Made by a program: the position numbers and the translations under genes. The notes beneath the pieces were generated by a model. It ran no database searches. It saw nothing but the letters and a program-made list of their open reading frames with translations, and had not been told where the DNA came from. Positions 24,807-32,670 of a stretch of 64,000 bases of DNA are shown here, in pieces. Position 1 is the first letter of the stretch. Every line of letters starts with the position of its first letter. The DNA is taken from assembly GCA_050309605.1 (NCBI GenBank), contig JBNRMN010000002.1, positions 1 through 64,000 on the forward strand. Direction: 5' to 3'. This stretch comes from Anaerohalosphaeraceae bacterium. GTDB taxonomy: Bacteria > Planctomycetota > Phycisphaerae > Sedimentisphaerales > Anaerohalosphaeraceae.

Positions 24807-27695
24807 ATGATATTTCCGAGAACCGGCATTATTGCATCCTTTTTTCTGATTTTTTCGATGGGTGCATTGGGGGATGTGCAATGGCTGCGTTATCGAACCA
24901 GTGAGGATGTGGGCCAGGAGGTGGGCGCCTCGGTGAACCGGTATTATCGCAGTTTTGAGTCGCAGCGTCCGGAGCACGTGCGGTGTCCGGAATTCAAATC
25001 CGACAGTCCCTTGTTTATTAAATGGAACACCCCGATGGACGGGCAGGGTTTTCGGTGGATCGCGTTGGATCGTTCGACGCCGTATGGACAATATGATCTG
25101 TTGTATATCGATTCAAACGGCGACGGGCATCTGGATGACGAGAAGCCGTATCAGGGGCGGCGAAGCGATCAGTATCGTATGGCCTTTCATCCGTTTCCTG
25201 TCTATCTGACCGGCGAGGACGGGCCGATTACCTATCATCTGGCGTGCCAATTCTACAGCTATGATGAGCGCAGTCGATATTTGATGATGTCTTCGGGCGG
25301 TTATTATGAAGGGACGGTGTTGATCGGCGGCGAACCGGTTGGGTGTGTTCTGGTGGATACCAACGGCAACGGGACGTTTGACGATACGGCTGAGGACTTT
25401 AACGCCGACCGGATTTTGCTGGGTGAAGGACAAAATCGGCGGGAGTATTTTGTGGGTCGCTATCTGGATTATGAAGGGACGTTGTATCGGCTTCAGATTG
25501 CACGCGACGGGGCGTTTGTGTCTCTTGCGGCTGCGCCCGACGTATCGTTTGGGGTCGTGCAGGTTCCCGAAGGTTTGACGAAATTCTCGGCCGGGGGTGT
25601 TAATGGAATGTATCACATGTCGCCGGAAAACGGGCACGTGCGCCTGCCGGAAGGGACGTATCGGGTGTATCAATGGGAGTTGGTTCGTCAGGACAAGGGG
25701 CAGGACTGGACCTTGCGGGGAAGCAATTTTCCGCGTCAGCAGAGTTTTACGGTCAGCGCCGATACGCCGGCGAGGGTGGCTGTCGGCGAGCCGGTATTTT
25801 CGCGGCTGTCGGTTTCCGAACGACAGGGAATCTATTCGATCAATCAGGAACTTCGGGGCAAGATGAACGAGCAGGTCAGTGTGCTGCGAAACGGTCGGCA
25901 GCCGCCGGCGCCGAAGGTGCATATTCGCAGCCAAACGGGCGCGTATGACCGGACGTTTTCGCTGGAGTATGGGTGAGGCGGTACCTGTTCGCTCTCGTGG
26001 CGAGAGCCGAGGAATATTGAGCGTCCGTATGTTATAACGCCGCTGGTCGAGGGGCCGTTTGATATACGGCAGATGCGCTATGTTTTTAAGCCGCTGCATC
26101 GTTCGGTACCGGTCGTCGGGCCGTGGATTGCCGAGGTTGCCGCCGATGAGGCGCTGCGCGTGGTGGTTGACGGTACGGGGCTGGTTGACCGTAACGGCGA
26201 CCGTTTGCCGGAGCATTTGACGCAAACCGAGACGCAGTGGATTGTATCGCAAGAGGAGGTGGGAGAAGGGCTTGTCTTTGATTTCGGCCAAGCGGTCGAG
26301 TTGGAAACGCTTCAAATCTGGAATTACAATGAGCCGGGCTATACATCGCGCGGCGTCGCGCAGGCGGATGTATCGGTCTGGACGTCTGAAGGCGACTGGA
26401 AGACGGTTTTGCGCGGCGCGTCGCTGCAAGAAGCCGAAGGGACAGACCAGTATGATGAGCCGACCCTGCTGAGGCTTGTCCCGACGCGGGCCGAGAAGGT
26501 GCGGCTGAGCAATCTTAAGCCGTTTGCCGATGAGGGGTTTGTCGGTTTGTCGGCGATCCGGTTTTATGAGAAGGCCACGTTGGCGGCCTGCAATCCGCAG
26601 CCGCCGGGAGGGGCATCGCTGCCGTTCAGTTCTCAGGCGACGTTGTTCTGGACGCCGGGTAAAGAGGCGGCTGCGTATGATGTGTACGCCGGAATCGACG
26701 GTCAAGAGCCGGCGTTTTTGGGTCGCATTGCGGAATCTCAGGTCAAACTGGTCGGGCTGGTCGGCGAACGAACATATCGGTGGCGCATTGATGCGGTACA
26801 AACGAATGGTACCGTTACGCAAGGGCCGCTGTGGTCGTTTTCGGTTGAGCCGGGCCGCTGTGTGGCGCATTGGCCGTTTGATGAACACGAAGGCCAAACG
26901 GCTGCCGATTCGCTCGGTCAGGCGGCCGGTGTGTTGAGAGGTGAACCGGCGTGGCTGATTGACGGCGGACGGATTGACGGGGCCATCGAGCTGGACGGTC
27001 AGCGTGATTTTGTCGAAACGCCGGCGCTGCATTTGAACACTGATACGCTGACGATGACTGTCTGGCTGCGGGCTGATCCGCCGCCGAATCAACTGACCGG
27101 CGTGATGTTCTGCCGCACGCCTTCGACGGTGGCGGGAATTCACTTGAGCGGTACGAATCTGCGGTATCACTGGAATGATCTTCCGGAAAGTTATAATTGG
27201 GACAGCGGACTGAGTCTTCCGACGGATGGCAGGTGGGTGTTTGCCGCCCTGACGGTTACGCCGGAGTCGGCCAGGCTGTACCTGCATCATGACGGTGAGC
27301 TGAAGACAGCGGAAAATCGTCTCGTTCATTCCGTTCAGCCCTTTGACGGGCCGTTGACATTGGGATGTGACGGCGGGATCAATGACCGCAATTTCAAAGG
27401 TCGTATGGATGATGCGCGGGTGTATAATTATGCGCTGACTGCTGAACAGATTCTTGCACTGGCCGAGGGACGTGAGCCGGCGGATTACGCTTCAGATGCG
27501 GCGCCGTCGCTGGCGCTGGCCGGTGCGGAATTGATCCAGCGCGACGCGGATTTGAAGGCGATCGCCGAGGCTCGGCAGCGCGAGCGACAAGCGGCTCCGC
27601 CGGCCGAGGTGCGCCGACGCAATATCCTGCCGGTGCTGGTGATTGTGGCGTTGATTGCCGCCGCGGCGGTGGTCTTGGGCAGGAAGTCCGCATAA
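24807..27695 (+). CDS. Candidate exported selenoprotein (962 aa, Sec390) with galactose-binding-like, Fn3-like and LamG domains and a C-terminal TM anchor
   Basis: ORFs 24807-25976 and 26073-27695 are in one frame, separated only by TGA 25974-25976 (YG-U-GGTCSLSWREP); SECIS-like hairpin follows; signal peptide; LamG motifs VAHWPFDE and FKGRMDDARVYNYALT. Confidence 0.8.
25991..26007 (+). promoter_or_regulatory. Bacterial SECIS-like hairpin 1
   Basis: GCTCTCG-TGG-CGAGAGC, after a 14-nt spacer from the TGA. Confidence 0.8.
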
Positions 27696-27819
27696 ACCGC
27701 AGAATAAGCAGTGAAACGTCAGATTTCACAAACTAAACAGAGAACGTTCTATTATGCGGCACGATCCTTCCGGCCGTATTGAAGGGGGATCGTGCCCGTG
27801 CTGCAAGGGAGGTTTCAGG

Positions 27820-30258
27820 ATGCGTCAAGTCATAAGCAGAAACGGGTGGACGTGGGTTATGGTTGTGTCGGCGGTACTCGGTGCGGCTGAGGCGAAAACG
27901 CTCAAAGGCACGGTCACCGGTCCTGACGGCGCACCGGTGGACGGCGCGGCGGTGAGTGTCTATGCGGCCCAGCTTAAGATTGAATCGCTTGCTTTTGAGG
28001 TTCAGCCGGTCGGTCAGACGACGACGTGTTCGTCGGGACTGTTTTCGGTGGAGACGGATGTTCAGATGCTGTCCAGCGAGGGAGGCTGGCTGTTTTTTGC
28101 GGAAAAGCCGGGCCTGTCAATCGGTTTTTCTTTGCTGCAAGACTTCTCGGAGGACAGCACGTCGCTTCAACTGACCGCGCCGCAGACATTGGCCGGACGG
28201 ATTGAGGATATTCACGGTAATGCGGTTGCCGGGGCCGGGGTGCGTCTGCTGGTTTTATCGGTTCCGGGTGAGCGTGAGTGCTATACGCTGGGGCTTGAGC
28301 CGATCCCGTTTTTTGCTGCGGAAACGGATGCGCAGGGGCGATTTGAATTCGCGAATCTGCCGGAAAACTGTACGGCTGAACTCTTGGCCAAAAAGGCGGG
28401 ACTGGCGACCTTTCATACGCTGACGTCCAACATCAATCCGCAAACGGGGCTGAGTTTTTCGGTCGGGCAGGAAGATATTGTCCTGACCTTATCCGAGGCG
28501 TGTCGAATCAGCGGTATAGTGACCGACCAGGACAATCAGCCGGTGGGTCATGTGCAGATTGTGGCGATTGAAGCGGACCATCCGCAGATCGGGATTTTTA
28601 CCCGGAATCTAACACGCGCCGAGGCCGACGGGACATTCAGCTTCGGCGGCCTGTCGGCCGGGTCATATCGACTCAGTGTGATTGATGCGGACTGGATGTC
28701 CGAGCCGGTTACCGTGGAGGTCAAGACGGAGGTGGGTGTGCCGCTGAAGGTCGTCAAGGGCAGCCTGCTGACAGTGACGGTGGTGGACGGCGTTTCCAAT
28801 CAGCCGGTTGGATCGGCTCAAGTCAATGTGAGTCCGCAGGATGAACGCAGCAGTTTCTCGTTCGGCAGGGGCACGACCGATCCGGAGGGCAAAGTGCAAA
28901 GTCGCGTTTTGCCGGGGACGTATAATGTGTACGTCAGTGCGCCCGGATATCGCAGCAGCCGCAGTGTCGCGGCGGTCGTGGAAGACGGCAAGACCAATGA
29001 GATCACGATTATGCTGGGCGCAACGGCCCGCATTGCCGGAACGGTTACCGATTCCGACGGGCGGCCCGTTGCAGGGGCACAAGTCTTTGTGCTCCCCTTT
29101 TCGGGTAATGTGCGGGACGCCATACAGACAACCGACGAAAAGGGGCACTTTACCCTTGGGTGGGATCCGGAGCAGATCAGTTGGGTACAGGGTGAATTCT
29201 ATCTTGCCGCGATTGACAAAAGCAGCAACCGTGCGGTGATTGAGCCGATTGACGCGGACACCACGGACATCCAGCTTACCCTTCAGCCCGGTCTGACGAT
29301 CACCGGCAAAGTGACCGGCCCGGACGGCGAATCTCTGGCCGGGGCGGGGGTGAATGTGCAGTTTCGCGGCTCAAACTGGTCTTCGACGCTTCAGGGATAC
29401 ACCGCCCAAACCGACCGGGACGGGATGTATCGTATTGCCGCCATACCGCCGCAGCAGCGGTATTACTTATTCATCAGTGGGCCGACCGGTTATGGCACCG
29501 GGTCGGTTAATCTGGAGTTACCGACGGACGGCGATGTGGTTACCGCATCCGATACGGTGCTGAAATTGGCCAATCTGTCGGTATCCGGCAAGGTGGTTGA
29601 TGAGGACGGCAATCCGCTGGAGGGGGTGAATCTGCATTGTTACGGCTCCGGCCAGCCCAGCGCCCAGGCGCGAACCGGCACGGATGGGACATTTGTGTTT
29701 GATGCGGTCTGCCAAGGCGATCTGTCCATTCAGGCCAATTATCAAAAAGACGGCGAGTATATGTATTCCAATGTCCGAACCGAAGGCGGAGCGCAGGAGG
29801 TCACGATCGTCCTGGGCCCGCAAAGCTCCGGCGGCGGCTATGTGCCGCGACGGCCGGCCCCGCTGGTCGGCAAGCTGCTGCCGGATTTGTCGGGGTACGG
29901 CATTGAGCTTGAGAGGCAGGCCGGGCCGGTGCTGGTATGCGTCTGGGACTGGCGGCAGCGGCCGAGCCGTTATATGGTGCGGCAACTGGCCGCGCGGGCC
30001 GGTGCGCTGGCCGAGCGGTCGGTACAGGTCGTGCTGCTCAATGGCGAATCGACGGAACGTGAGCCGCTCGATGCGTGGCTGGCTGATTTTGACATTCCGT
30101 TCGTCTGCGGCGTTATCGCCATCGACCCCGATAATTCTCGATTTAATCTCGGCGTCCAGGCGATGCCGTGGCTGATTTTAACCGATGGTCAGCGCAAGGT
30201 CATTGCTGAAGGGTTTGCGCTGTCCGAATTGACTGATAAGCTGGGCGGACTGCAATAA
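27820..30258 (+). CDS. Exported protein with carboxypeptidase-regulatory-like repeats and a C-terminal thioredoxin-like domain lacking CxxC
   Basis: Repeated ISGxVTDxDGxPVAGAxV...TDxxGxF units; C-terminal LVGKLLPDL...VCVWDWRQRPSR...GVQAMPWLILTD. Confidence 0.75.
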   Translation: MRQVISRNGWTWVMVVSAVLGAAEAKTLKGTVTGPDGAPVDGAAVSVYAAQLKIESLAFEVQPVGQTTTCSSGLFSVETDVQMLSSEGGWLFFAEKPGLSIGFSLLQDFSEDSTSLQLTAPQTLAGRIEDIHGNAVAGAGVRLLVLSVPGERECYTLGLEPIPFFAAETDAQGRFEFANLPENCTAELLAKKAGLATFHTLTSNINPQTGLSFSVGQEDIVLTLSEACRISGIVTDQDNQPVGHVQIVAIEADHPQIGIFTRNLTRAEADGTFSFGGLSAGSYRLSVIDADWMSEPVTVEVKTEVGVPLKVVKGSLLTVTVVDGVSNQPVGSAQVNVSPQDERSSFSFGRGTTDPEGKVQSRVLPGTYNVYVSAPGYRSSRSVAAVVEDGKTNEITIMLGATARIAGTVTDSDGRPVAGAQVFVLPFSGNVRDAIQTTDEKGHFTLGWDPEQISWVQGEFYLAAIDKSSNRAVIEPIDADTTDIQLTLQPGLTITGKVTGPDGESLAGAGVNVQFRGSNWSSTLQGYTAQTDRDGMYRIAAIPPQQRYYLFISGPTGYGTGSVNLELPTDGDVVTASDTVLKLANLSVSGKVVDEDGNPLEGVNLHCYGSGQPSAQARTGTDGTFVFDAVCQGDLSIQANYQKDGEYMYSNVRTEGGAQEVTIVLGPQSSGGGYVPRRPAPLVGKLLPDLSGYGIELERQAGPVLVCVWDWRQRPSRYMVRQLAARAGALAERSVQVVLLNGESTEREPLDAWLADFDIPFVCGVIAIDPDNSRFNLGVQAMPWLILTDGQRKVIAEGFALSELTDKLGGLQ

Positions 30259-30320: not shown

Positions 30321-31475
30321 ATGAGACAATGGGTTGTTTTATGGGTCGCTTTCGCGGCGGCCGGGGCGATGGCGCTGACGGTTTCGGAGCAGACGCTTGA
30401 TCTGTTTGGTACGTCCGAGCCGGAGGATCCGAATGCCGTGGTTCTCGCTGATCCGCCCTACACCGTCAAGGTGTCGCGCACGGGCAAAGTGCTGAATGTG
30501 GCGATTGAGACCGCGTCGCGTGAGCAGGCGGAATTGCTGTTCGGCGCGCATTATGAACAGTCGCCGAGACTGTCGATTTATAAGGGCGATTTGCTGCTGG
30601 CATCGGGGCAGTTCGCCTTTGGGTGAGGCGGCGTCTGTGCGTACTCGTGGCGAGTACCGATGTATGCTTATGGCACATTCAGAATCGAGACGGAAGTGCC
30701 GACCGGCGAAGGCGAACCGATCCGCGTCGAGCCGACGACATATTATTTCAATCCGCTGTATCATGCGTCGGGGTTTGTCTATTTCGTTCCGGTTGCGGCG
30801 GCGTTTTTGTTCCTGAAAGAAAACCGGCGACCGAAGGCGTTTTTGATTCTGGCGCCAATGCTGCTGGTGATGGGGATGTGGAGAGGGTTTTCCGGAGTGA
30901 TGCATTTTCCTGAAGAGGCGGTCAGCATGTTAAATTCAGTGGTTATGGCCTTGCTGGCGGGCCTTTCCGTTGTCTGGCTTCTGGGTGAGCGGATCGGCCA
31001 TCGCCATCGGTTGGCAACGACTTTTCTGGCGGGCGGTATTATGCTGGGGTGCTGTGCCCTGATGCTGGTAGAAATCTTTTCCTCGGACTATGTGTTTCAA
31101 ATCGCATTTTTCGGTGTGATCAGTGCGGCGGTTATCCTGTCGGGCTTACTTGTCGGCGGTTTCCTGAGCCGGAAGCGATTTGGCCCGGTGCGTTTTTTGC
31201 TATGGTTCGGTGTGGGCATTTTATCGGCGACTTTTGTGCTGTTTTTTGTTTATTATGCGATTTTGACATTTTCCTATTTCAGTGCAGATTTGTTCTGGAT
31301 GTTGTTGGGCGTGATGCTGACTTATGCCGCAATCTATTGGGTAGGCGTCTTGCCGTTTCTGGTGCTGTTTTTCGTCAATGACTTTTGGCGGCAGCGGTTT
31401 ACGGCGGTCATGGGATTGGGCACTGTAGCCGTATCCGAGACGGAAGCTCACGAGGCGTTTACGTCTGACTTCTGA
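30321..31475 (+). CDS. Candidate membrane selenoprotein (384 aa, Sec102)
   Basis: ORFs 30321-30626 and 30660-31475 are in one frame across TGA 30624-30626 (FG-U-GGVCAYSWRVP); SECIS-like hairpin; signal peptide plus about 7 TMs. Confidence 0.8.
30641..30657 (+). promoter_or_regulatory. Bacterial SECIS-like hairpin 2
   Basis: GTACTCG-TGG-CGAGTAC, after a 14-nt spacer; compensatory changes relative to hairpin 1. Confidence 0.8.
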
Positions 31476-32323
31476 TCGCCCAGTTCCGTCGGTTCGTCCA
31501 GCAGGGTGGCCGGCTTCAGTGCGCCGGGGCCGCATTTTGTGCATTCCAGACAGCGGATGCAGTGGTCGGCGTTGGGGGTCTTATCGGGCTGGACGCCGTA
31601 GCGGCACAGGGTTCGACAGCGGCCGCATTGGGTGCATTGGTGTTCTTCCAGGTTCAGTGTAAACAGAGAAAACCGATTGAAAAAGCCGAAAATCGCACCC
31701 AGCGGGCACAGAATTCGACACCACGGGCGGATGGTAAAAAAGATGGCGGCGACAAAGACGACGATGATGGTGATTTTGAGGGTGTTGGGCCAGGGGATTA
31801 CGTCGCCGGCGACGGCGGCGGAAACCACATCGGGCAGGGCCTTTTCCAGCCCGCCGGCCGGGCAGATACGGCAGATAAACAGCGGGTGGCCTTCGCCGAA
31901 AAAGTAGGGGACGGCCAGGACTGTCCCGATCAGTACGACATAGCGAAAATGCCCCATCCAGCGGGGGATTTTGAAACGCGGCGCGGGGACCTTGGCCGCG
32001 ACATCCTGAAGCAGGCCGAACGGACACATCCAGCCGCACACCAGCGAGCCGAGCATCACGCCGAACGCGATCAGCAGTCCCACGGCAAAATACGGAAACA
32101 GGTGCAGCGCACTGAATTGGGCAATGACGCCGATGGGGCAGCCGAACAAGGCCAGCGGACAGGCATAGCAATGGAACACCGGTCCGCACACGGTGTGCAT
32201 CCGCAACCCGAACGGATCGAGCCAGACCAGCAAAAAACCCGTCTGTACCCACAGCCGATGCGGCAGGAGTTTTTTGAAAAACCGCGACAGCGGCGATGAC
32301 GATGAATTGACCGTGGACACCAC
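31448..32323 (-). CDS. Membrane 4Fe-4S binding protein (NapH/MauN-like)
   Basis: CYACP, CGWMCPFG, CRICPAG, CRILCPLG and two CxxCxxCxxxC motifs. Confidence 0.88.
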   Translation of the reverse strand: MVSTVNSSSSPLSRFFKKLLPHRLWVQTGFLLVWLDPFGLRMHTVCGPVFHCYACPLALFGCPIGVIAQFSALHLFPYFAVGLLIAFGVMLGSLVCGWMCPFGLLQDVAAKVPAPRFKIPRWMGHFRYVVLIGTVLAVPYFFGEGHPLFICRICPAGGLEKALPDVVSAAVAGDVIPWPNTLKITIIVVFVAAIFFTIRPWCRILCPLGAIFGFFNRFSLFTLNLEEHQCTQCGRCRTLCRYGVQPDKTPNADHCIRCLECTKCGPGALKPATLLDEPTELGDQKSDVNAS

Positions 32324-32327
32324 AGCC
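32309..32327 (-). promoter_or_regulatory. Bacterial SECIS-like hairpin 3
   Basis: GGCTGTGG-TGT-CCACGGTC (8 bp with 2 G-U pairs); loop starts 22 nt after TGA 32343-32341. Confidence 0.6.
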
Positions 32328-32331
32328 TCCT

Positions 32332-32577
32332 TTAACTGCCTCAGGTCGGGCAGGCTTCGGGGGGCTTGCCCGTGTAGGTTAACTGCAATCGACCGTCGTC
32401 GGTACGCTCCAGCCCGCCGATGCTGACTTCCTTCATCAGCCGCGTTTCGGGCGTGGCCAACCCTTTGTCGTTGTGTTCCGAAAAGACCGGCTGCGTGTGA
32501 AACTTCAGCCCGAAGGCCATCAGGCCGGCGCCGATAAACAGCAGCACAAATACGATTTTGATCTTGAAGGACTCCAT
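32332..32577 (-). CDS. Small single-TM candidate selenoprotein ending in C-P-T-U-G-S
   Basis: Track ORF ends ACPT-TGA; readthrough gives a CxxU motif, then GS-TAA; SECIS-like hairpin at matching spacing. Confidence 0.65.
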
Positions 32578-32670
32578 AATATTTACGCTATCATAGCACA
32601 CCGGAATGTATTTGTAAACAGCGTTTGGCGTACAAAATGATTGGCGGCCAGTCAGGATCGGCAGCCAAAT

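Follow-up and report, generated by a model that had tools for sequence, protein, structure and literature searches.

A putative family of exported selenoproteins with an Fn3/Ig-like selenocysteine module in Planctomycetota

Features of the locus

The window analysed here comprises the first 64,000 nucleotides of contig JBNRMN010000002.1 (C2:1-64000) from the assembly GCA_050309605.1 of an Anaerohalosphaeraceae bacterium (genome G000; 3.40 Mb, 97 contigs, 54.5% G+C; G, C, L and f numbers are our own handles for genomes, contigs, loci and families). Its forward strand carries two open reading frames (ORFs) in the same frame, one of 389 aa ending with a TGA codon (24807..25976) and one of 540 aa (26073..27695). 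These are very probably one gene, hereafter gene A, in which TGA 25974 is read as selenocysteine (Sec, U); if this UGA is a Sec codon, then 24807..27695 encodes a single protein of 962 aa. The module surrounding the Sec residue would define a large, previously unrecognised selenoprotein family, which has so far been seen only in Planctomycetota.

Gene A is followed by a gene for a CarboxypepD_reg protein and by gene B, a second member of the family, and then, on the opposite strand, by the gene for a NapH-like ferredoxin, upstream of which (in its own reading direction) is that for a small protein with a single transmembrane (TM) segment (Table 1).

Table 1. Genes and sequence features of the gene A locus (positions in the window).
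Feature	Position	Strand	Basis or remarks
Whole gene A	24807..27695	+	962 aa with proposed Sec residue 390; the gene would end at TAA
N-terminal hydrophobic segment, likely signal peptide	24807..24872	+	Translation by eye: MIFPRTGIIASFFLIFSMGALG
Sec module, ~110-124 aa, predicted Fn3/Ig-like beta-sandwich with loop Y-G-U-G-G-T-C	25749..26120	+	Alignment A1, AlphaFold2 model, fold searches
Proposed Sec codon UGA (U390)	25974..25976	+	Sequence, translation with TGA = U, conservation in relatives
Predicted bacterial selenocysteine insertion sequence (SECIS) hairpin GCUCUCG-UGG-CGAGAGC, encoding S-L-S-W-R-E	25991..26007	+	14 nt after UGA, -9.4 kcal/mol, covariation
Laminin_G_3 (PF13385; LamG/concanavalin-like), residues 730-882	26994..27452	+	Pfam, E 1.2e-19, 71.3 bits, cut-off 27.6
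C-terminal transmembrane anchor, then RKSA	27624..27680	+	Translation by eye; also in orthologues
CarboxypepD_reg x5 protein, 834 aa, thioredoxin-like C-terminal tail without CxxC	27754..30258	+	Next to family members in G016, G034 and G027
Gene B, 384 aa: signal peptide, Sec module (proposed U at 30624-30626), polytopic membrane domain	30321..31475	+	
Predicted gene B SECIS hairpin GUACUCG-UGG-CGAGUAC	30641..30657	+	14 nt after UGA 30624
NapH/MauN-like Fer4_5 membrane ferredoxin	31448..32323	-	Pfam Fer4_5 in the window, G016, G034, G245 and G027
Small 86-aa single-TM protein ending C-P-T-TGA-GGC-AGT-TAA (C-P-T-UGA-G-S-TAA)	32332..32601	-	TGA 32341-32343, hairpin ~32309-32327

One reading frame across an in-frame TGA codon

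Translated with TGA as U, the product of gene A counts 389 + U + 32 + 540 = 962 residues, and the read-through FSLEYG-U-GGTCSLSWREP with 32 open codons up to the ATG at 26073, which a preliminary description of this DNA had proposed, is reproduced exactly. Such continuity is common in the source genome, where stops flanked on both sides by at least 150 open codons occur 599 times (254 TGA, 274 TAA and 71 TAG), and hence it is not significant alone and the case rests on comparison. Judged by the comparison of relatives, it is the conservation of the TGA, the motif and the hairpin that is beyond chance, not the open frame.

The orthologues of gene A are 944-965 aa long and keep the same TGA. When the 32 linker codons are compared with the orthologue in G002, five synonymous and no non-synonymous changes are found, a pattern which indicates that these codons are constrained at the protein level by purifying selection. 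The codon aligned to ATG 26073 is CTG, CAT, CAA or ACA in four of the five orthologues.

The longest ORF there under translation table 11, an antisense ORF of 738 aa (25113..27329, - strand), is most likely spurious; it is not conserved, given that the longest antisense open stretch ranges from 85 to 468 codons in eight orthologues, and it was rejected as both the Pfam domain and the conservation are on the + strand. In a relative with 98% identity (G006; L014, C55), gene A ends 76 codons past the Sec codon with ...AADEPPRRWSWVGSPHKPQNNQ*, and gene B follows approximately 2.1 kb after the Sec codon of gene A, compared to 4.65 kb in the window. It seems that the lectin-like part and the CarboxypepD_reg gene have been deleted here.

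Conservation of the TGA codon and cysteine forms

A six-frame scan of the source genome with the motif returned three paralogous sites, all of them with TGA (window 25974, window 30624 and a site near selA on C34). With a query of 130 aa, matches were obtained in 13 of 41 related genomes, and exactly one TGA is present in 27 of the 28 matches, at identities from 99% down to 25%. Of the 401 genomes sampled from the phylum, 36 gave a match in searches with the alignment A1, and up to nine copies were found in one of them. G016, whose single-contig genome belongs to the same taxonomic family as the source, has three copies. The 53 loci were re-aligned, which resulted in 58 domain hits. In 56 of these the Sec column is occupied by a codon, namely 51 TGA, two TGT, two TGC and one GAA. 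Mixed stop codons among the homologues, which the preliminary description had named as evidence against its reading, were not found, as TAA and TAG are absent from this column. In these counts the window and G002 were entered twice each and one chance hit is included (L035, TGT), so that the number of distinct TGA sites is 49.

Cysteine occupies the Sec column in a few relatives. L033, from a Pirellulales genome bin, has TGT, one base from TGA, and an intact hairpin. L047 (G112) and L051 (G264) have TGC in the context ...YS-C-GGVC...G-K-M-P, and their hairpin is lost (-1.7 kcal/mol, or none). Cys is also found at this position in the database protein P0172 and in nine representative proteins of the wider family. 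A pattern search of the genome contigs with Cys at the Sec position, which is able to find Cys forms only, added one real relative; L034 and L035 from the same search were rejected as chance matches.

It may still be argued that TGA 25974 is a true stop, which leaves either two genes in the same frame (389 and 540 aa) or one gene broken by a nonsense mutation. The frequency of same-frame open stretches in the source genome (599 cases) would agree with this, as would the public annotation of the upstream part as a complete protein of approximately 390 aa. Nevertheless, we regard a true stop as extremely improbable, since a TGA, and never TAA or TAG, stands at the same column in 51 sites from many genera, the 32 following codons are conserved as protein while ATG 26073 is absent from four of five orthologues, homologues with a Cys codon read straight through and the beta-sandwich module spans the TGA.

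The public databases contain the family mostly in truncated form. When the best 120 homologues of the N-terminal 470 residues are considered, all but one stop at ...[YF]G (119 proteins); the exception, P0172, has Cys there and continues. Every named entry in this set is called 'hypothetical protein', and the closest of them belong to metagenome-assembled genomes of Phycisphaerales, Anaerohalosphaera, Sedimentisphaerales and other Planctomycetota. In a profile search against 1.84 billion representatives, 932 proteins passed the threshold of E<=1e-3. From the top 150, 149 domain hits were obtained, of which 102 end just before the Sec column, two begin after it and 45 read through. Proteins annotated as ending at ...[YF]G, for which the preliminary description had suggested a search, are thus found in both sets, an outcome in favour of its reading. 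The read-through representatives carry C (9), G (8), L (8), S (6) or Q (3) at the Sec column and, more rarely, A, R and W (2 each) or P, T, H, M and E (1 each). Relatives that keep G-x-G-G-T-C with G, L, S, R, W or Q at this column are mostly one base away from TGA. Such one-base neighbours (GGA, TTA, TCA, CGA, TGG) may be true substitutions, gene calls made with another genetic code, or errors.

Selenocysteine machinery and a probable SECIS hairpin

The source genome encodes the complete Sec machinery. Matches to selB (323.6 bits), selA (550.6 bits) and selD (374.7 bits) are all above the curated cut-offs; selA and selB are adjacent on C34, and a tRNA-Sec gene with the anticodon tca (C64:23853-23949) is adjacent to selD on C64. 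In the sampled genomes selA was found in 289 of 401, and it is present in 32 of the 36 carriers of the family. No selA match was obtained in G112 and G264, both with Cys forms only, nor in G279, where the family match is weak and the genome 69% complete. A genome-wide reassignment of TGA can be rejected, because TGA ends 724 of 1961 long non-overlapping ORFs of the source genome. Decoding of UGA 25974 would accordingly involve SelB and Sec-tRNA, with the SECIS hairpin at 25991-26007 placed within the coding sequence.

Bacterial SECIS (bSECIS) elements are described in PMC13188914 as having a small apical loop with a G and a distance of 16-37 nt between UGA and loop. The hairpin of gene A agrees with these rules, having a 3-nt loop UGG with G at position 2, a stem of 7 bp and a UGA-to-loop spacing of 21 nt. 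A scan found a hairpin at 48 of the 49 distinct TGA sites, where it mostly starts 12-16 nt downstream of the TGA (range 9-19 nt) and usually has a stem of 7-8 bp and a loop of 3 nt, most often UGG. The stem sequences themselves are unrelated among the sites (GCUCCGG/CCGGAGC, GUACUCG/CGAGUAC, AGUGCGUU/AACGCACU, GGCACCCG/CGGGUGCC, GAAUAUUC/GAAUAUUC and others).

Covariation was analysed in an alignment of the 49 sequences (A2), using 500 shuffles and slid pairing partners as controls. In A2, 79.6% of the cells are paired compared to 65.7% in the shuffles, and 51 cells have changed on both sides where 14.3 were expected. The covariation score is 0.384 vs 0.156 for shuffled alignments; none of the 500 shuffles reaches 0.384, a count which is no probability because the sequences in A2 are related, and the slid partners give 0.05-0.19. 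In view of the slid controls and the variety of the stems, an RNA structure is the simplest reading.

A change in the stem brings a change in the encoded peptide, from SLSWRE to SLRWPE or SLTWRG. Since the peptide shifts with the stem, a part of the 'SWRxP' motif of the preliminary description is an RNA footprint (UCG-UGG-CGA); W-[RK]-x-P is kept in relatives without Sec as well.

The same data bear on the assumption that read-through of the UGA needs no selenium and is due to a suppressor tRNA, a near-cognate tRNA or stimulation by the hairpin, in which case residue 390 would be Trp, Cys, Arg or Gly. Residues such as G, W, R, L or S, mostly one-base neighbours of TGA, are indeed found at this column in some relatives, and the hairpin has no SECIS match in Rfam. 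However, the full Sec machinery is present, the hairpin fits the bSECIS geometry, selA accompanies the family in nearly all carriers, with two of the four that lack it holding only Cys forms, and Cys is the residue in those homologues that keep the motif. Hence, we give this assumption only a very slight chance of being correct.

Domain structure and fold

The gene A protein would begin with a signal peptide, followed by a region with DxNGDG loops, beta-sandwich repeats and the Sec module, and would continue with a weakly F5/8C-like region, the LamG domain and the C-terminal membrane anchor. The signal peptide, the calcium-loop-like stretches (DSNGDGHLDD and DTNGNGTFDD) and the hydrophobic anchor (ILPVLVIVALIAAAAVVLG-RKSA), all listed in the preliminary description, are visible in the translation, although by eye only. 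Its list of modules holds in part: the LamG-like domain is recognised by Pfam, also above the gathering score in the orthologue of G016, whereas the galactose-binding module corresponds to a sub-threshold match to F5/8 type C at residues 474-571 (E 0.002, 18.6 bits, cut-off 28.2) and Pfam reports no Fn3 domain on the gene A protein. The C-terminal anchor suggests that the ectodomain is tethered to the cytoplasmic membrane, and the location at the surface, as formerly stated, is unproven.

An AlphaFold2 model of the module, computed from A1 (pLDDT 80.5, pTM 0.69), is an all-beta sandwich of eight strands without a helix. In this model Sec (residue 76) is located in the loop between the strands 67-71 and 80-85, and the partner Cys (80) is the first residue of the following strand. 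The invariant columns in A1 are P55, G75, U76, G77, T79, C80, W84 and P87, and G-U-G-G-T-C is the most conserved stretch. In fold searches with Foldseek (PDB) and VIA, the best structural match is the Fn3 domain of a cytokine receptor (8qy5_C, Z 10.0, root-mean-square deviation 2.6, 91 aligned residues), and further matches include macroglobulin (MG) domains of Salmonella alpha-2-macroglobulin (4u48_A, Z 8.5) and of C5 (MG4, 6rpt, Foldseek E 1.5e-3). With such Fn3, MG and carbohydrate-binding module (CBM) domains the Sec module has only the fold in common, at 4-15% identity, and no Sec/Cys loop is present there according to the matches listed. No Pfam or NCBIfam release 20.0 model covers the Sec region at E<=1; for 16 module sequences no relevant NCBIfam family was found at this threshold, and none over residues 300-470 of the gene A protein.

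The position of the Sec residue within the module is also relevant for another possibility, namely that the UGA acts mainly as a selenium-dependent switch, with a 389-aa N-terminal protein made at low selenium and the anchored 962-aa form made with selenium, so that the residue itself matters less. The tolerance of the column for other residues in parts of the wider family would be in line with this, as would the linkage of the family to selA and selD and the stable length of the database ORFs of approximately 390 aa. But termination would cut the beta-sandwich module mid-way, the most conserved stretch is precisely the one around Sec, where five positions (G, U, G, T and C) do not vary in A1, and Cys forms exist where selA was not found. 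We therefore consider a mere switch to be unlikely.

Gene B and the gene neighbourhood

The motif of gene B reads FAFG-U-GGVCAYSWRVP. Its membrane domain has approximately seven helices (residues ~146-364; model pLDDT 70.6), and no known fold was found for it in a fold search in which the matches cover residues 43-150 only. The different architectures of the family include long LamG proteins such as that of gene A, anchored proteins of ~470 aa, polytopic-membrane fusions such as gene B (30321..31475) and anchored or lipoprotein forms of ~220 aa beside selA.

The gene set of the window is found again in G016, G034, G027, G245 and G023, for the last of which the NapH-like gene is inferred from its position only. 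The thioredoxin-like tail of the CarboxypepD_reg protein has W-R-Q-R-P-S at the active-site position in the window and x-Q-R-P-S-R in the orthologues. The small single-TM protein matches neither Pfam nor NCBIfam models. In all 11 loci it ends with C-[PA]-T-TGA, two codons and a stop, which is TAA in eight, TAG in two and TGA in one, and each locus has a hairpin of 7-8 bp with a 3-nt loop 15-19 nt past the TGA that overlaps the start of the NapH-like gene. This makes the protein a candidate C-terminal CxxU selenoprotein.

Genes of selenium metabolism are located close to the family in several genomes. In 10 carriers out of 36 (G000, G002, G245, G231, G055, G046, G146, G086, G247 and G095), which belong to at least seven families (f1, f54, f26, f17, f76, f15 and f33), a member of the selenoprotein family and selA share a contig and are no more than 2 kb apart, and proximity to selA is also seen in G034; as the carrier genomes are kin, no statistical test is claimed for this linkage. 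Moreover, selD stands beside the cluster in G034, G027, G245 and G016. A BcrAD_BadFG ATPase, three HGD-D genes and a methyltransferase are beside selD in G034 and G023; the stretch covered in G016 (L066) has only the BcrAD ATPase there, and in G245 an outer-membrane channel and an ABC transporter are found. The selD genes of the clusters (L066:16926-18545, L067:8860-10074, L069:8307-9737 and L070:11837-13429) have an N-terminal Cys-rich extension (HCVCDPKKPCPCD...CLCAGE), and two of these four (L066 and L070) also have a C-terminal CMD/AhpD-like domain.

The third TGA site of the source genome is part of a short ORF (86-96 aa; C34:83204..83494, - strand), which lies 241 bp from selA-selB in divergent orientation, covers just the C-terminal half of the module and has neither signal peptide nor anchor; its TGA and its hairpin are intact. 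The ORF may be a remnant; relatives have anchored or lipoprotein forms of ~210-240 aa at the equivalent place. Furthermore, prepilin-like proteins with an N_methyl motif are encoded next to selA and genes with the Fn3/Ig-like Sec module (Sec-Ig genes) in G034, G245 and G028 (L067:16873-17868, with the same gene in L032; L069:1395-2309, - strand; and the ORF upstream of the Sec-Ig gene of L023). They end with [VP]PG-TGA, zero or one codon and TAA, with a hairpin of 8 bp 13-16 nt past the TGA, and are candidates for proteins with a C-terminal Sec. This pattern was not found in the source genome.

Possible functions

With regard to function, our tentative preference is for a site outside the cytoplasm that performs selenol/thiol redox reactions or handles chalcogens. 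The selenolate, which is usually paired with a Cys four residues on, would represent an extracytoplasmic reactive centre, and selenenylsulfide exchange or the capture of soft elements are candidate chemistries. The location of the genes beside selA, selD and the genes for the NapH-like ferredoxin and the C-P-T-U protein makes us lean towards a redox relay for chalcogens that is fed from the membrane. In such a relay, the membrane module (NapH-like and C-P-T-U proteins) would feed or recycle the exported selenolate, and the chalcogen handled could perhaps be selenium on its way to SelD. The most specific version, in which Sec-Ig, C-P-T-U and NapH-like proteins together take up selenium, or a different chalcogen, from the environment, reduce it on their selenolate/thiolate loops and deliver it to SelD, is in our view rather unlikely. 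If true, it would represent a dedicated selenium-acquisition system, itself made of selenoproteins and encoded beside selA and selD, and it would explain why Phycisphaerae have up to nine paralogues with differing anchors and lectin-like heads.

The main functional rival is a soft-metal site (Cu(I), Ni, Co, Zn, Cd or Hg), in which Sec is decoded but the U...C loop serves metal scavenging or acts as a chaperone. A selenolate and a thiolate in an exposed loop at the end of a sandwich recall metal-binding Ig-like proteins, and weak structural matches to HftA (8t7m, Z 7.8), CrdA (9ll2, Z 7.6), Tp34 (3pjl, Z 7.4) and superoxide reductase (6gq8, Z 8.1) point in the same direction. However, dozens of Fn3/Ig domains from unrelated proteins score as high as these matches (top Z 10.0), A1 displays no conserved His, Met or Asp ligands in the module, and the constant neighbours are selA, selD and the NapH-like redox protein and not a gene for a metal transporter or metalloenzyme. 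Hence, a soft-metal site is possible but doubtful. The selenium-dependent truncation switch may coexist with either function.

Several observations weigh against our interpretation of gene A as an exported Sec protein with a redox or chalcogen function. Many read-through representatives have neither Cys nor Sec, so the position must be dispensable in a part of the wider family. The partner Cys is shifted or missing in some distant TGA members (e.g. L058, L064 and L059), and the TGA site L058 gave no hairpin in the scan. G103 has TGA forms and no selA match at E<=1e-30 in a genome that is 90% complete. An Rfam scan of 25900-26120 at E<=10 returned no SECIS family; we do not weigh this result against a SECIS, because models of this type represent bacterial SECIS elements poorly. 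As far as the model goes, the structural neighbours of the module are generic Fn3/Ig/MG/CBM sandwiches that give no functional lead. The functional proposal is based on gene neighbourhood only, and selenoprotein genes are often near sel genes via co-regulation. Nevertheless, taken as a whole, a Sec-containing gene A product is the explanation that we hold to be the best with high confidence.

Relation to known selenoproteins

Bacterial selenoproteins are mostly cytoplasmic and are thioredoxin-like or molybdopterin enzymes. The family described here would be a new one within this known kind, unusual in its fold, cellular location, motif and number of paralogues, and it might be mentioned by Haft & Gwadz (2023) or Haft & Tolstoy (2025). 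With the SelB/bSECIS-dependent selenoproteins, e.g. formate dehydrogenase, it shares the in-frame UGA and a hairpin just downstream with a small G-containing loop, as these are presented in PMC13188914; Cys homologues, selA, selB, selD and tRNA-Sec are all present as well. The proteins show no detectable relation to the selenoprotein families listed there; they have a predicted Fn3/Ig-like beta-sandwich instead of a thioredoxin or molybdopterin fold, are apparently exported and occur with up to nine paralogues per genome. The combination of Sec with a nearby Cys resembles the UxxC/CxxU sites of thioredoxin-fold proteins and suggests a selenenylsulfide couple. In contrast to those sites, the spacing is U-x3-C (G-U-G-G-T-C) on an all-beta model without a thioredoxin fold, in agreement with the preliminary description, which had already pointed to the unusual distance.

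The prokaryotic selenoprotein table of PMC13188914 contains no U-x3-C family, and its main text has 'Uxxx' once, in the UxxxxU of TsoB. Among the uncharacterised families of that table, DUF1573 (PF07610, UGC) and 'hypothetical protein DG' (NF049953, GUxG) are nearest by motif, with a G next to U. Neither model hits the family even at E<=1, and PF07610 matches neither the module at E<=1 nor the whole protein at E<=0.1. We take DUF1573 to be a beta-sandwich domain common in Planctomycetes.

The same article cites work by Haft and co-workers on the SAO and Tso operons, which encode multiple selenoproteins. Clustering of unrelated selenoprotein genes is a feature in common with these systems, considering Sec-Ig, the candidate C-P-T-U protein and, in relatives, the candidate prepilin-like proteins. 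The Tso motifs LULAxC, UxxxxU, NEPxGxxU and HSGNPxU, as listed in PMC13188914, do not match the family in the window. Likewise, no NCBIfam 20.0 model of the SAO/Tso systems matches the window proteins. The families from the 2023 and 2025 work of Haft & Gwadz and Haft & Tolstoy should presumably be included in that release. The main texts of deep-Sep (PMC12013277) and BSepDB (PMC13326102) do not mention Planctomycetes, and among the papers listed by our full-text search none pairs a selenium term with Phycisphaerae, Sedimentisphaerales or Anaerohalosphaera. In a second such listing, 'Planctomycetes' occurs in PMC1794560 alone, a single time.

In this family, Sec would be carried by a module of the Fn3/Ig type that is exported and whose loop, G-U-G-G-T-C, is unusual. 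The public annotation of the family appears to be almost uniformly wrong; if corrected, it would add to the selenoproteins known from Planctomycetota and provide gene callers with a new signature consisting of SECIS and motif. Moreover, the linkage with selA, selD and the NapH-like gene offers a testable lead on selenium handling or extracytoplasmic redox reactions in anaerobic planctomycetes.

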